Source: Capsulimonadaceae bacterium
Lineage (GTDB): Bacteria; Armatimonadota; Armatimonadia; Armatimonadales; Capsulimonadaceae
Length of the DNA stretch: 64,000 nucleotides
Direction of reading: 5' to 3'
Assembly: GCA_965215505.1 (NCBI GenBank)
Contig: OZ244065.1
Span: forward strand, 1,632,001 to 1,696,000
Below the pieces are notes generated by a model. That model saw only the letters and a list, made by a program, of their open reading frames with translations. It searched no databases and was not told the origin of the DNA. The position numbers and the translations under genes are program-made. How positions within the stretch are numbered: the first letter of the stretch is position 1; every line of letters begins with the position of its first letter. Below are positions 51,027-54,333 of the stretch, piece after piece.

Positions 51027-52628
51027 TCAGGCGACCGCGAAGTCGCTCATGACGTTCGGCGTTGCGGTCGAGAACCCGACCACGTCCATCATGCCCGCGT
51101 CGTCGGGGTCGGCGATGGTGAATTTATTGGACACCATGCCGCAGACGATCAGCTTGGCCGGGATGCCCATGCGCTCCCGGTACAACCGCAGGGCCTGGAC
51201 CGGCTGGATGTTCCCCGCCCACGTCTCCGAGTCGGTGTAGACGACGAACACGTCCGCTTCGACCTTGTTCTTCAGCGCCCAGACCATCGGCAGGGCGCAG
51301 TCGGTCCCGGCGAAGGGCAGACCGCTGACCGTCTTCAGCACGTCGTCGAGCCGCTGGCGCGGGCTGATATTCAGCGGCATGAACGTCGTCGAGAACGCCA
51401 TGAACCGGTGACGCGCCTCGGTCGCCGCCGTGATCAGGGCCATCGCCGCGCTGGCGACGCGCGGCGTCAGGCCCGGAACGCCCGCGATCTGACCGCCCTC
51501 CATCGAGCCGGACACGTCCAGGGCGAGCAGCCACCGCTGGCCGGTCGGCGTGACGTTGCCGAACGAGGCGTAGAACGCCGCGTCCAGGGCGTCCACGATG
51601 GCGGGGACCGGCGTCCAGCTATTCCCACCGCGCTCGCCATGCCCCTGGGCATAGGTCTTCAGGGCAGACAGGACCTGAATCGGATGGACCCGCGCCTTCC
51701 GCAGACGCGCCCCGTCGGTGATCTGCGCGGCCACCTTCTGAGTCTCCGGCCCCATCGAAGTGAGCAGGCCCACCCGCGTCAGGGTCGCCAGGTTGCGGAT
51801 GAGCGCCGTCATCGGCATCTCCTCCAGCAAGGCCTCCCAGACGAACGGGTCGGTGAGCCACTGCGTCGGGACCGCCTCACGCGGCAGCCGGTACTCGCGA
51901 ACGAGTGCGGCGACCTGCGCCGCCGTCTCTGCCGTTTTGACCCGCTCCGATGCCCAGACCAGCCGCAGGGCCGGGTCCGGGTGGGGCATCTCGCCGACCG
52001 ACTCCCACCCCTGGGTCAGCCAGTGGTAGAGCGCGAAGTGCTGCTCCGTCGCGGGCTTCGGGTGCGAGAGCCGCAGCAGGTCGCGGTGGCTCCAGCCGTC
52101 CCGCTGCCCGTACTTGACCGCCTGGTAGGCCAGCCTGTCGGCGGGCATCTGGGCGTACCAGTTGCCGACCGCCTGCCGCAGCCCGCGGCCCCAGCCGCGC
52201 ATCCCGTCCACATACTGCGCGAAGTGGAACAGGTGCGTCCCGATCCGTGCCACGACCGGCAGGGCCGCCAGCGCCTTCCGGCGCGTGTCCTCGTCGCCGA
52301 GTGCAGCGCACATGGCGAGTGCGAACAGGGCGGGGTCGTTCTTCGGCGCGCGCCCGGCCTCGGACACGGCGACGATCTCGCGTACGACGCGCGGGCCGTC
52401 CGCGCCGATGCACCGCTTGACCGCCTCGGCGTTCTCCAGCGTCAGGGTCGTCTCGCCCGCGTAGAACGAGCCGCCCTCGGTTCCCAGCGCGAGGAATCGT
52501 GCCAGCCGCGTCCAGTCGTCCACGGCGAAGGTGAACCCGCCCGCGCTGTTCGCGACCTGGGCCGAGCCGGGGATGGGCCGGCTCTGCGGCGTCACTTTCT
52601 TGTTAAAAACCGTCTTCAAGTACGTCAT
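51027..52628 (-). CDS. rsr: Ro60/Rsr TROVE-vWA RNA-binding protein
   Basis: NSAGGF, RFLALGTEGGSFY, GWGRGLR, KYGQRDGWSHRDLLRLSHP, ALIRNL, vWA DVSGSM, GTDCALP, YTDSET; ATG at 52628 after AAAGGAG. Confidence 0.97.
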   Translation of the reverse strand: MTYLKTVFNKKVTPQSRPIPGSAQVANSAGGFTFAVDDWTRLARFLALGTEGGSFYAGETTLTLENAEAVKRCIGADGPRVVREIVAVSEAGRAPKNDPALFALAMCAALGDEDTRRKALAALPVVARIGTHLFHFAQYVDGMRGWGRGLRQAVGNWYAQMPADRLAYQAVKYGQRDGWSHRDLLRLSHPKPATEQHFALYHWLTQGWESVGEMPHPDPALRLVWASERVKTAETAAQVAALVREYRLPREAVPTQWLTDPFVWEALLEEMPMTALIRNLATLTRVGLLTSMGPETQKVAAQITDGARLRKARVHPIQVLSALKTYAQGHGERGGNSWTPVPAIVDALDAAFYASFGNVTPTGQRWLLALDVSGSMEGGQIAGVPGLTPRVASAAMALITAATEARHRFMAFSTTFMPLNISPRQRLDDVLKTVSGLPFAGTDCALPMVWALKNKVEADVFVVYTDSETWAGNIQPVQALRLYRERMGIPAKLIVCGMVSNKFTIADPDDAGMMDVVGFSTATPNVMSDFAVA

Positions 52629-52640
52629 CGTCTTTGTCTC

Positions 52641-52662
52641 CTTTCGGCCCCAGTGGGGCAAG
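52641..52662 (-). promoter_or_regulatory. Minimal Ro60-binding-type hairpin abutting the ro60 Shine-Dalgarno
   Basis: CTTGCCCC-ACT-GGGGCCGAAAG: the same bulged-C helix as the Y RNAs, running into AAAGGAG. Confidence 0.6.
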
Positions 52663-52665
52663 TGC

Positions 52666-52744
52666 CGGACAGGCAAGGGGTGCGCCTGGGTGTTGGTTTT
52701 CTGGTTTCAAGAAGAGTGTTAACCCAAACACTTCGGCCCGTCCG
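52666..52744 (-). ncRNA. Y RNA E1 (canonical topology)
   Basis: 5' CGGACGGGCCGAAGTGTTTGGGTTAA pairs with 3' CCCAGGCGC...TTGCCTGTCCG, leaving a bulged C. Confidence 0.85.
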
Positions 52745-52762
52745 TGTCACAGTGTCACGATC

Positions 52763-52909
52763 TGAAGAGCGGCAGGACTTGCACCTGCACTGCCTCTCGG
52801 CAACGCCGTCCCTGATAACCGTTATCCTGCGGCCTGCAAGCGGGCAAAGGTCGGTAACGGGAATGCCTTGCGGCCACGACGCGCGTCTGCTGATTTCGCC
52901 ACGCTCTCC
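52763..52909 (-). ncRNA. tRNA-like/Y hybrid E2 (tRNA-Leu-like, long variable arm)
   Basis: GGAGAGCG/CGCTCTTC acceptor, TGGCGAAATCAGCAGACGC D arm, TGCCGAGAGGCA variable arm, GCAGG-TGCAAGT-CCTGC T arm; internal TTTGCCCGC-TT-GCAGGCCGCAGGATAACGGTTATC. Confidence 0.8.
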
Positions 52910-52915
52910 ATCGTT

Positions 52916-52937
52916 GGTTCAGGCCATGGCCTGAACC
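52916..52937. repeat. Perfect 22-bp palindrome, possibly a collapsed Y-RNA stem
   Basis: GGTTCAGGCCATGGCCTGAACC resembles the ends of E6 and E8. Confidence 0.6.
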
Positions 52938-52957
52938 GGCTCCGTCGTCAGTATGCA

Positions 52958-53095
52958 TGAAGAGCGGCAGGAGTCGAACCTGCTGCCTCCGGGGTGAAAG
53001 ATAACCGTTTTCCTACGGCCCGCATCGCAGGCAAGTGGCGGAAACGGGAACCGCCTTGCGGCGACCCGGTGAGCTGCCGTTGCTCCACACTCTTC
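52958..53095 (-). ncRNA. tRNA-like/Y hybrid E3
   Basis: GAAGAGTG/CGCTCTTC acceptor, GAGC-AACGGCA-GCTC D arm, CCGGG/CCCGG stem, GCAGG-TTCGACT-CCTGC T arm; internal TTGCCTGC-GAT-GCGGGCCGTAGGAAAACGGTTATC. Confidence 0.83.
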
Positions 53096-53100
53096 ATCGC

Positions 53101-53218
53101 TGGCTCAGGCAAGGTGATTGCCTACGGGTGTCACCCCGTACTGGAGTTCATCGCTCCAGCGCTTTGCTCTTGGTCAGGGTGCGATCACTCGATAACCCGT
53201 ATGCTGCGGCCCGAGCCA
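53101..53218 (-). ncRNA. Y RNA E4 (canonical topology)
   Basis: TGGCTCGGGCCGCAGCATACGGGTTATC ... CCCGTAGGC...TTGCCTGAGCCA. Confidence 0.85.
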
Positions 53219-53235
53219 TTCTTATCCAGTTGTCA

Positions 53236-53344
53236 TGGAGGCGATCGGAGTCGAACCGATGACCGTGTGGTAACCATCTTCCAGCGGCCCGCGAAGCAGG
53301 CAAAAGGCGGCGATGGGTTGCTCTACCTACTGAGCTACGCCCCC
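53236..53344 (-). ncRNA. tRNA-like/Y hybrid E5 (Ala-like acceptor)
   Basis: GGGGGCG/CGCCTCC-A with G3.U70, GCTC-AGTAGGTA-GAGC D arm, ATCGG-TTCGACT-CCGAT T arm; internal TTTGCCTGC-TTC-GCGGGCCGCTGGAAGATGGTTAC. Confidence 0.85.
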
Positions 53345-53350
53345 GCCTGT

Positions 53351-53416
53351 GGTTCAGGCAAATGCCGCGCCTGGGGGTAATCTTAACAGGATAACCCAGG
53401 CGCTTCGGCCCGAACC
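53351..53416 (-). ncRNA. Y RNA E6 (minimal, canonical topology)
   Basis: GGTTCGGGCCGAAGCGCCTGGGTTATC ... CCCAGGCGCGGCATTTGCCTGAACC. Confidence 0.87.
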
Positions 53417-53442
53417 GGTGTCTCGCTCTTCGTATCCAGTTG

Positions 53443-53567
53443 TGGTGGAGAGCGGGAGGATTCGAACCCCCGACCCCGTCAGTGATAATGATAACCGTCA
53501 TCCAGCGGCCCGCGGGGCAGACAAAGGGCGGAGACGGATCGTGCTCTGCCACTGAGCTACGCTCCCC
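53443..53567 (-). ncRNA. tRNA-like/Y hybrid E7 (Ala-like, encoded CCA)
   Basis: GGGGAGCG/CGCTCTCC-ACCA, GCTC-AGTGGCA-GAGC D arm, GGGGG-TTCGAAT-CCTCC T arm; internal TTTGTCTGC-CCC-GCGGGCCGCTGGATGACGGTTATC. Confidence 0.85.
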
Positions 53568-53630
53568 GTATTCGGCGATCCGCTATTCAGTTATGACCGG
53601 CCCCGCCTGGCAGCAGGGCCGGAAAAGGAC

Positions 53631-53720
53631 GTTCAGGCAAAAGGCGTCCTGGGATCATCCCGTTGCCGGGATTTGGATTCGAACCAGTGTGCCAGATAAC
53701 CCAGGGACTACGGCCCGAAC
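53631..53720 (-). ncRNA. Y RNA E8 (canonical topology with an internal T-loop, YrlA-like)
   Basis: GTTCGGGCCGTAGTCCCTGGGTTATC ... TGG-TTCGAAT-CCA ... CCCAGGAC...TTGCCTGAAC. Confidence 0.85.
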
Positions 53721-53744
53721 TTCAATCTTCGTCGTGGTCTTCGC

Positions 53745-54077
53745 CTAGAACCGGAAGGCCGCGAGGCAGCCCGCGAGGCAGGCCAGAAGCAGCAGGAGCA
53801 TGAGCGCGTCGGAAACGCGCGACAGGCCCGCGTTGTGGCCCTTGCCATCCCGCTTCGGCTCCGGCGCGGGCGGCGGGGCGAACTCCAGGATGATCAGGTT
53901 GCCGCGCCGCTCGATCACCCGTCCCACGCTCCTGCCGGGGGGCTTCGGGTTACGCTCCGGGGGATGGCCCGTGCGCTCCGCGAAATAGTGGACCAGACAC
54001 AGCGGCGCAGCTGTGTCGCCCCCGCTGTCCCCCACCCCCTGCATGTCTTCGTCGTACTCCGTGATGTCGTATGTCAC
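53745..54077 (-). CDS. Small hypothetical protein with C-terminal TM segment
   Basis: GAAGGAG RBS before GTG; C-terminal LMLLLLLACLAGCLAAF. Confidence 0.6.
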   Translation of the reverse strand: MTYDITEYDEDMQGVGDSGGDTAAPLCLVHYFAERTGHPPERNPKPPGRSVGRVIERRGNLIILEFAPPPAPEPKRDGKGHNAGLSRVSDALMLLLLLACLAGCLAAFRF

Positions 54078-54103
54078 TGGTTTCTCCTTCAGGAAAAGCG
54101 TTC

Positions 54104-54160
54104 AAAGAAAAAGACGCCCACCGCTCGGCTTGTGGGCCTTTGCGGTGGGCGTCTCTTTCT
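54104..54160 (-). terminator. Intrinsic terminator/attenuator in the leader of the Y-RNA-ro60 operon
   Basis: AGAAAGAGACGCCCACCGC...GCGGTGGGCGTCTTTTTCTTT. Confidence 0.8.
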
Positions 54161-54186
54161 CACGGGTACACGAGTGTGGTGAGTGT

Positions 54187-54333
54187 CTAAGGGACGAGTC
54201 CTCCGTCAAAGGAAGCAGTCGGGCGCTGGTACTGGGCGTTCACGAGCCACTGCCCACGACCGGCGGGGTCGGACTGGTGGCGCTCGCTGGTTAATGTGCT
54301 AACGTAAATCATGCTGGTCTGCTTCAGTGTCAT
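54187..54333 (-). CDS. Putative 48-aa leader peptide
   Basis: GAGG before ATG; MTLKQTSMIYVSTLTSERHQSDPAGRGQWLVNAQYQRPTASFDGGLVP*; lies between the promoter and the terminator. Confidence 0.5.
   Translation of the reverse strand: MTLKQTSMIYVSTLTSERHQSDPAGRGQWLVNAQYQRPTASFDGGLVP

Follow-up and report, generated by a model that had tools for sequence, protein, structure and literature searches.

The DNA directly upstream of the Ro60 gene in a Capsulimonadaceae bacterium is predicted to encode an array of Ro60-associated Y RNAs, half of which are hybrids between a tRNA and a Y RNA. Two of these hybrids, E5 and E7, carry the complete bacterial alanine acceptor set at an open, tRNA-like end. Alanylation of E5 and E7 is plausible from comparison of their sequences and those of their relatives, and we give the whole chain of events, from processing of the RNAs to charging, a probability of about 0.5. 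E5 and E7 may be the first amino-acid-charged Y RNAs and, if so, would form a second cellular class of anticodon-less alanine-accepting RNAs beside tmRNA.

Results

An array of eight structured elements precedes rsr

The window analysed here is a stretch of 64,000 nt from contig OZ244065.1. It contains rsr, the Ro60 orthologue, on the minus strand at 51027..52628, with an ATG at 52628, GGAG before the start, and matches to Pfam TROVE (9.2e-47) and vWA_Ro60 (1.7e-66). This is the single TROVE gene in the whole genome, which has 6.18 Mb and 66.5% G+C. Between rsr and the next ORF, directly upstream of rsr and on the same strand, lie eight structured Y-RNA-like elements (E1–E8, 52666–53722), comprising four simple Y RNAs (E1, E4, E6, and E8) and four tRNA-Y hybrids (E2, E3, E5, and E7). 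The neighbours of rsr and the array encode PdxS, an M48 peptidase, hydrolases, and a GHMP kinase. Simple consensus scans of 52500–54200 gave no promoter-like or terminator-like sites, and ARAGORN called 0 tRNA genes in the window.

In the simple Y RNAs, the RNA's own 5′ and 3′ ends pair into the bulged helix typical of Y RNAs. Against the nematode Y-RNA homologue family RF01656 they scored 18–32 bits, all below the cut-off of 38. E1 (52666..52745, minus strand, as are all eight elements) has a bulged, putatively Ro60-binding stem formed from its own ends, with a sub-threshold RF01656 score of 30 bits and a fold z-score of –3.5. The sequence GCCGAAG in E1 fits the GNCGAAN0-1G motif of Chen 2014. 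E4 (53102..53218) has a larger internal domain and was recognized by its fold and an RF01656 score of 28.2 bits. E6 (53351..53417) scored 32.3 bits with a fold z-score of –4.55. E8 (53630..53722) has the usual Y RNA topology, a T-arm-like hairpin in its interior, and a stem capped by GCAA, as judged from its fold and an RF01656 score of 18.2 bits.

The hybrids were scored with R1, a census covariance model built from 23 hybrids, which is biased toward E5/E7-like sequences and in which some low-scoring rows are mis-registered. E2 (52763..52909) scored 50.4 bits with R1. It has an 8-bp stem, GGAGAGCG/CGCUCUUC, followed by A, with a G.U at pair 2 instead of pair 3 and without CCA. E3 (52958..53095) scored 58–62 bits and has an 8-bp stem, GAAGAGUG/CGCUCUUC, followed by A, with A-U at pairs 2 and 3 and again without CCA; the register of this stem was set by eye, the R1 alignment being off by 2 nt. 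Much higher R1 scores were obtained for E5 (53236..53344; 106.4 bits), which has a 7-bp acceptor stem, and for E7 (53443..53567; 103.9 bits), which has an 8-bp acceptor stem and an extra hairpin in the variable region.

The hybrids join a complete tRNA body to a predicted Ro60-binding helix

The hybrids consist of a complete tRNA body (acceptor stem, D arm, and T arm) in which a capped, predicted Ro60-binding helix takes the place of the anticodon loop, and the RNA begins and ends at the acceptor stem. The Rfam tRNA model RF00005 matched E5 (44.5 bits) and E7 (38.8 bits) over the full model, 1–71, at scores above the gathering score of 29. The replacement for the anticodon arm is 48 nt in E5, from the cmscan alignment, and approximately 59 nt in E7, estimated from the length of the match. 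The minimum-free-energy fold of E5 is a cloverleaf with the Y stem at the anticodon position. The strand order of the Y helix is reversed in the hybrids, with the 3′-strand motif CUUUGCCUG coming first, then the capping loop, and then the 5′-strand motif CGGGCCG..GGUUAUC. The simple Y RNAs carry GCCGAAG and the hybrids the variant GCCGCUG or GCCGUAG, and the published Ro60-contact motif (GNCGAAN0-1G / GGUCCGA-like 5′ strand) is only partly kept letter-for-letter in E5 and E7.

We aligned 23 hybrids from 18 genomes to a hand-drawn structure that has an acceptor stem, a D arm, a two-part Y helix, a variable hairpin, and a T arm. In this alignment 92.6% of cells were paired and compensatory changes occurred at 19 of 35 pairs. 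None of 500 shuffles reached the observed values, and slid controls were 38–49% paired. The Ro60-binding helix (helices 3 and 4) is backed by covariation in this alignment, and the GGCCG and GGUUA.C of the helix are invariant in all 23 hybrids. Together, these data support placing E5 and E7 among the Y RNAs that associate with Ro60 (Rsr), with a so far undescribed topology and with Ro60 binding as a prediction.

Several other identities were considered and rejected. A tRNA gene with an intron was ruled out because nothing like a 7-nt anticodon loop occurs within or around the insertion. A canonical YrlA formed across two adjacent elements was ruled out as well. Junctions in relatives matched at only 24–30 bits against a cut-off of 69, and at the L016 junction the acceptor 3′ strand of one element lacks complementarity to the 5′ strand of the element that follows. 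The YrlA model RF02553 itself had no match in the window at E values up to 10. E7 is not a tmRNA, since only its ends match the tmRNA model RF00023 (21.7 bits against a cut-off of 47), and the real tmRNA of this genome lies elsewhere.

The hybrids co-occur with the Ro60 gene

An R1 search of the bacterium's own genome found hybrids at the rsr locus only, and the next-best matches were three tRNA-Ala genes. Across the order, hybrids occurred in 34 of 71 genomes (R1, E ≤ 1e-11) and a TROVE gene in 37 of 71. The two go together: hybrids were present in 34 of the 37 TROVE-bearing genomes and in none of the 34 TROVE-less genomes, and all 34 genomes with hybrids have TROVE. Of 151 genomes sampled evenly across the phylum, 29 had an R1 match, approximately seven of these 29 being ordinary 76-nt tRNAs.

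The closest Ro60 loci are labelled as MAGs of Armatimonadota, Armatimonadales, and Capsulimonadaceae. Hybrids were also found upstream of rsr in loci labelled Gemmatimonadaceae, Entotheonella, Planctomycetota, Dictyobacter, and Actinomycetes or Solirubrobacterales. The hybrids from other phyla have different acceptor stems, without G.U at pair 3. From these covariance-model searches, the native-topology tRNA-Y hybrid is a widespread predicted RNA class that is present in two families of the order as well as in loci of five or more further phyla. Both the Rfam YrlA model and ARAGORN miss native-topology tRNA-Y hybrids. In the literature that we searched, we found neither this topology nor a link of Y RNA, Ro60, or Rsr to alanyl-tRNA synthetase (AlaRS), and an earlier description elsewhere is possible.

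E5 and E7 have alanine-type acceptor ends

The first-pass annotation of this DNA had read alanine identity elements in both E5 and E7. For E5 it gave G1-C72, G2-C71, G3.U70, and a discriminator A, and we confirmed this reading on the minus strand. G1 of E5 is at 53344 and A73 at 53236, and the acceptor strands are GGGGGCG and CGCCUCC. The pairs are G1-C72, G2-C71, G3(53342).U70(53239), and G4-C69, followed by A73 and the trailer UGA, without an encoded CCA.

For E7 the annotation had noted a GGGG start, a G.U as the third pair, and an encoded CCA. All three are present, with the qualification that the G.U is third in the helix-end register and not in the tRNA-body register. E7 runs from 53567 down to 53443, with the 5′ end GGGGAGCG and the 3′ end CGCUCUCC-ACCA. 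Counted from the helix end, its 8-bp stem is G-C, G-C, G(53565).U(53449), G-C, A-U, G-C, C-G, and G-C, followed by the discriminator A and the encoded CCA (ACCA, 53446–53443). In tRNA-body numbering, that is, 7 bp from the T arm, this G.U is pair 2:71; it is third only in the register set by the helix end and ACCA. The helix-end register is the one that AlaRS reads and hence the relevant one for the G.U of E7. Relative to the tRNA body, the G.U pairs of E5 and E7 are one pair apart, and they have the same register from the 3′ end. The two stems differ by one inserted A-U pair, so that their G.U pairs may have a single common origin.

The variable-region hairpin of E7 hints at serine identity, for which the discriminator and pair 3 are informative, and the discriminator A and pair-3 G.U of E7 rule this identity out. 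Histidine identity (G-1:C73) is a misfit for E7, which has an extra A ahead of the CCA. As a separate observation, some other 8-bp hybrids with C next might fit histidine identity.

The bacterial alanine set is listed as A73, G2-C71, G3.U70, G4-C69, and G20 in the part of PMC9976931 that was available. The acceptor portion of this list is complete in both E5 and E7. The minor element G20 is absent, with U20 in E5 and C20 in E7. Among the 64 ARAGORN genes of this genome, the combination of G1-C72, G2-C71, G3.U70, and A73 occurs only in the three tRNA-Ala genes and the tmRNA; a doubtful 92-nt 'tRNA-Gly' among the 64 shows GC CG GU. E5 and the genome's own tmRNA share all seven acceptor pairs. 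As judged from these comparisons, the alanine set in E5 and E7 appears to be more than chance.

We also compared the halves of E5 and E7 with tRNA genes. For the E5 halves, the genome's own tRNA-Ala genes were the best match by a narrow margin, and the tRNA body of E7 is not especially Ala-like. An origin as a recent copy of a tRNA-Ala gene was rejected, since the match of the E5 halves to the genome's own tRNA-Ala is only marginally the best and the E7 halves do not have it.

The G.U pair and the CCA are conserved with exceptions

Copies in other genomes were assigned to the E5 or E7 type by their position in the array and by a tree of short sequences that is weakly resolved, and all counts of orthologues come from related genomes and overstate the independent support. 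With this in mind, the E7-position orthologues in 12 genomes of genera g1 and g2 had the G.U in 11 (A-U in G004), the discriminator A in 12, and an encoded CCA in 11 (CCC in G014). The E5-type 7-bp orthologues, from nine genomes, had G3.U70 in 9/9, A73 in 7/9 (G73 in G013 and G017), and an encoded CCA in 0/9. In many E7-type orthologues, pair 4 is A4-U69. The annotation had named conservation of G3.U in homologues as a check on charging and its loss as a refutation. The pair has mostly held, being retained in these g1/g2 sets (11/12 and 9/9), replaced by A-U in G004, G066, and G067, and replaced by A-U or G-C in four copies from family f2.

Outside g1 and g2, the E7 set is kept in genus g15 (2/2) and in genus g9 of the other family (2/2). 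Genus g17 has A-U at pair 3 and yet keeps the CCA (2/2), and an E5-type copy from one g17 genome combines G3.U70 and G73 with an encoded CCA. G3.U70 and A73 also occur together in 7-bp copies from genera g3 and g6, with G1.U72 in addition in the g6 copy. G1.U72, which one copy (L021) has, is an antideterminant for E. coli AlaRS. The three E7-type copies with A3-U70 (G004, G066, and G067) have the CCA, and the four f2 copies, which cluster with E7 and come from genera g8, g21, and g5, are without it. Among copies that retain the G.U, the discriminator is G73 in three and U73 in one.

We examined the placement of G.U pairs in 118 distinct hybrids, which come from related genomes and are not independent. 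In 30 of these, the third pair counted from the helix end was a 5′-G.U. The counts at pairs 1, 2, 4, 5, 6, 7, and 8 were 4, 5, 2, 0, 3, 0, and 3. Pair 3 is something other than G.U in the remaining 88 of the 118 hybrids, which rules charging out as a general function of the hybrid class.

In the sets sampled first, the G.U was invariant, with 17 of 35 pairs varying in the E7 set (81% mean identity) and 20 of 31 in the E5 set (75%). Pairs 4 and 5 of the acceptor stem alternate between G-C and A-U while the G.U stays, and neighbouring pairs covary. E7 has a second G.U, in the T stem, and only 2 of 23 rows share it. The triplet after the discriminator is CCA in E7-type copies and UGA, CGA, CAA, or UAA in E5-type copies, and a downstream CAACUGA is common to both. 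Because the triplet varies in the E5 type while CAACUGA is shared, the CCA seems to be conserved in its own right. U at –1 is frequent in E7-type copies and would suit RNase P.

Discussion

A possible route to alanylated Y RNAs

In the mechanism that we propose, the array would be transcribed together with rsr as one precursor, which is the arrangement described for the Y RNAs of M. smegmatis in the available part of PMC4201824. RNase P would then cleave at the top of the acceptor helix. The 3′ end of E7 would be trimmed back to its encoded CCA, and that of E5 would be cut after A73 with CCA then added by the CCA-adding enzyme. The free G1-C72/G2-C71/G3.U70/G4-C69/A73-CCA end could then be alanylated by the cell's single AlaRS, for which the anticodon would not be needed, with Ro60 sitting on the distal 'anticodon' helix. 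The site of RNase P cleavage is important for E7 in that its 8-bp stem gives G3.U70 only if the cut is at the helix end; a cut that leaves 7 bp would place the G.U at 2:71.

The components for this route are encoded in the genome, which has one AlaRS, a CCA-adding-family enzyme, RNase Z, and RNase P RNA. E5, which has no encoded CCA, would need RNase Z and the CCA-adding enzyme. Approximately two thirds of the genome's tRNA genes have no encoded CCA, so CCA addition is routine in this genome. A dedicated second AlaRS or a nearby aminoacyl-transferase was ruled out, given the one AlaRS in the genome and the PdxS, M48 peptidase, hydrolase, and GHMP kinase neighbours.

Published data describe how strongly alanylation depends on this pair. 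G3.U70 governs alanylation, its change to A-U or G-C abolishes charging, and putting G3.U70 into a tRNA-Tyr or tRNA-Phe confers alanine acceptance (PMC9976931, in the part available). The A3-U70 in G004, G066, and G067 thus counts against alanylation, since A-U abolishes charging in the systems tested. The first-pass annotation had suggested that E5 and E7 could be alanylated, and this part of it gains from the conserved acceptor set and the encoded machinery and loses from the exceptions to conservation and the missing G20.

The most likely use of an alanyl ester on these RNAs is protection of the 3′ end and/or coupling to the cell's charging state. The ester, possibly bound by EF-Tu, would shield the 3′ end from the 3′–5′ exonucleases that Ro60 works with, and/or it would tie the Ro60 particle to that charging state. 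The annotation went further and proposed a link to ribosomes and the donation of alanine to a transferase; neither idea found support, and no transferase or RtcB is nearby. A bolder reading, which is quite improbable, has EF-Tu binding to alanyl-E5 and alanyl-E7 and the Ro60 ring being carried in this way to the translation machinery, or has the charging state of the two RNAs acting as a switch on Ro60-dependent RNA decay in response to amino-acid supply.

Alternatives to charging

The alternative that survives best is that the hybrids, as tRNA mimics bound to Ro60, expose a free acceptor end with CCA without being meaningfully aminoacylated in vivo, an explanation that is possible with the odds against it. 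The alanine-like end would then be retained for a different purpose, such as tethering Ro60 to a protein that reads such ends (AlaRS itself as a bound effector, a D-aminoacyl-tRNA deacylase, RNase P, or the CCA enzyme) or simply stability. The minihelix work established that a helix with G3.U70 and A73-CCA suffices by itself for AlaRS. An exposed helix of this kind was a sufficient AlaRS substrate in every bacterial system tested, as given in the available part of PMC9976931, so avoiding charging would need active shielding. The retention of G.U at pair 3 (30/118, compared with 0–5 elsewhere in the stem) is also what selection for AlaRS recognition predicts. On the side of the uncharged mimics, three E7-type copies have the CCA with A-U at pair 3, so conservation seems stricter for the free end than for the G.U. 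DTD proteins also read G3.U70 (PMC9976931). In addition, Y RNAs tether Ro60 to effector proteins, and the tRNA-like domain of YrlA has been proposed to bind an unknown tRNA-binding factor (PMC4201824 and 10.1101/312249, both as available in part).

A second alternative, which we consider unlikely, treats the G.U as a relic of an ancestral tRNA-Ala or tmRNA-like acceptor that drift has not yet removed, and the hybrids as Ro60 scaffolds that also serve as RNase P/RNase Z punctuation to release the simple Y RNAs. The alternation of hybrids with simple Y RNAs in the array is consistent with this, as are the possible single origin of the G.U in E5 and E7, the loss of the G.U in several lineages, its absence from pair 3 of 88/118 hybrids, and the marginally closest match of the E5 halves to the genome's own tRNA-Ala genes. 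However, in the very orthologues that retain the G.U, both bases of neighbouring acceptor pairs have been replaced in compensatory fashion, and a neutral G.U needs only one transition to turn Watson-Crick. The G.U in the T stem of E7 has not been conserved in this way, the tRNA body of E7 is not especially Ala-like, and the encoded ACCA is specifically conserved.

That the elements are decayed tRNA genes or an artefact of assembly or annotation, with no functional RNA, would agree with the absence of an ARAGORN tRNA call in the window and of promoter-like or terminator-like sites in simple scans, but it is very improbable given the structure-preserving covariation over many genomes, the strict co-occurrence with rsr, the invariant Ro60-binding motif, and the presence of hybrids in several phyla.

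Comparison with known systems

The purpose of the tRNA-like domains of bacterial Y RNAs has been a question since 2014. Salmonella Typhimurium YrlA (RF02553) resembles the hybrids in that it lies beside rsr and links a Ro60-binding module to a tRNA-like part with D arm, T arm, and elbow. In YrlA the tRNA is circularly permuted, its acceptor loop is closed, and there is no free CCA end (10.1101/312249, in the part available). It ends in the Ro60-binding stem, its acceptor-like stem is closed by a loop, and its T arm comes before the D arm; E5 and E7 are the opposite on all three points. The RF02553 consensus acceptor-like stem has no G.U. Aminoacylation has been thought unlikely to be general because the known YrlAs have a sealed acceptor end. 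The hybrids would be a natural form with an open acceptor end, with the alanine acceptor set in two conserved lineages and an encoded CCA in one, and aminoacylation of a Ro60-bound RNA by AlaRS becomes a directly testable question.

The nearest precedent is YrlA of Mycobacterium smegmatis, which has a tRNA-like domain, an open CCA end, and a possible aminoacylation that was already raised. The 7-bp acceptor stem of its tRNA-like domain is cut by RNase P, and CCA is gained in vivo (Chen et al., 2014, PMC4201824). The authors mentioned possible aminoacylation of YrlA and protection from exonucleases in passing, in the part of that paper available. M. smegmatis YrlA is a circularly permuted tRNA in which the closed acceptor loop is cut to give two base-paired halves. 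By contrast, the hybrids have the native order of acceptor 5′ strand, D arm, Ro helix, T arm, and acceptor 3′ strand, and their Ro helix is capped. The alanine identity set is present in E5 and E7 and the encoded CCA in E7, and neither is reported for M. smegmatis YrlA in the available part of PMC4201824. Yrn1 of Deinococcus radiodurans resembles the hybrids as a Y RNA with a D-like arm ahead of a T-like arm (PMC4201824, in part). In Yrn1 the Ro60-binding stem is formed from the ends of the RNA and is at the acceptor position, whereas in the hybrids the corresponding helix is at the anticodon position.

The tRNA-like structures of plant RNA viruses are non-decoding RNAs to which CCA and an amino acid are added and which bind elongation factor (10.1101/312249, in the part available). 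They differ from the hybrids in being viral 3′ ends with Val, His, or Tyr identity that are neither cellular nor linked to Ro60. The tRNA-like domain of tmRNA, like E5 and E7, has no anticodon and has G3.U70 and A73, and tmRNA is charged by AlaRS through G3.U70 and A73-CCA. The hybrids are unlike tmRNA in having a normal D arm and neither a tag reading frame nor pseudoknots, and their putative partner is Ro60 rather than SmpB.

By their closeness to rsr and their Ro60-helix motif, E5 and E7 are placed among the predicted Y RNAs. They are separated from YrlA by topology and from tRNA by the anticodon, and they do not group with tmRNA. If they are charged, tmRNA would no longer be the sole cellular non-decoding RNA charged with alanine, and the RNA quality control carried out by Ro60 would be tied to tRNA charging and the translation machinery.

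E8 and the spacers behind the hybrids

E8, a Y RNA of the usual topology in which the Ro60-binding stem is made by the RNA ends, lies on the minus strand at window positions 53630-53722. Within its loop, the T-arm-like hairpin UGG-UUCGAAU-CCA precedes a stem of 6 bp with a GCAA cap, and a D arm is absent. E8 looks like a reduced canonical YrlA/YrlB that adjoins hybrids of native topology, where a capped Ro60-binding helix replaces the anticodon loop of a tRNA body.

We compared the spacers of the window with those of L002-L013. On the minus strand of the window, the spacers 3' of E7 and E5 occupy positions 53420-53442 and 53219-53235, respectively. In most genomes of the genus, the spacer 3' of both E5-type hybrids (7-bp acceptor stem) and E7-type hybrids (8-bp stem) starts with a conserved CAACUG(A/G)A, and the interval between E8 and E7 has the similar AACUGAAU. 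This motif may be a processing site.

Hybrids and tRNA genes at other loci

In genus g9, the E7-type copies (L017:1502-1687 and L018:1502-1685) have a length of about 185 nt. The 5' acceptor strand of these copies, GGGGAGCG, is repeated internally, and because of this second copy two alternative acceptor pairings are possible, with or without a D arm. Hybrids are interspersed with 2-7 ordinary tRNA genes at the loci of family f2, the other family of the order (L014-L018 and L039). In four Actinomycetes/Solirubrobacterales MAG records (L084, L090, L097, and L100), rsr is inside or adjoins arrays of 15-24 canonical tRNA genes, and a hybrid of 154-167 nt is directly upstream of it.

An rsr-hybrid array is also borne by a contig in a record titled as a Janthinobacterium lividum MAG (L071). 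Its model scores of 95.8, 94.5, and 58.4 bits are identical to those of the Armatimonadota locus L013, which makes the organism label look like a binning error.

Within the genome under study, ARAGORN called a 'tRNA-Gly(ccc)' of 92 nt whose acceptor stem is imperfect (C1:1176009-1176100) and a tRNA with a two-letter anticodon (C1:1991483-1991559). Both calls are probably false or aberrant.

Across the census, the acceptor stem has 8 bp in 70 of the 118 hybrids. The top pair of these stems is nearly always G-C, U is often found at -1, and in several the nucleotide next after the stem is C rather than A. The 8-bp stems followed by C are reminiscent of tRNA-His, with its G-1:C73 pair.
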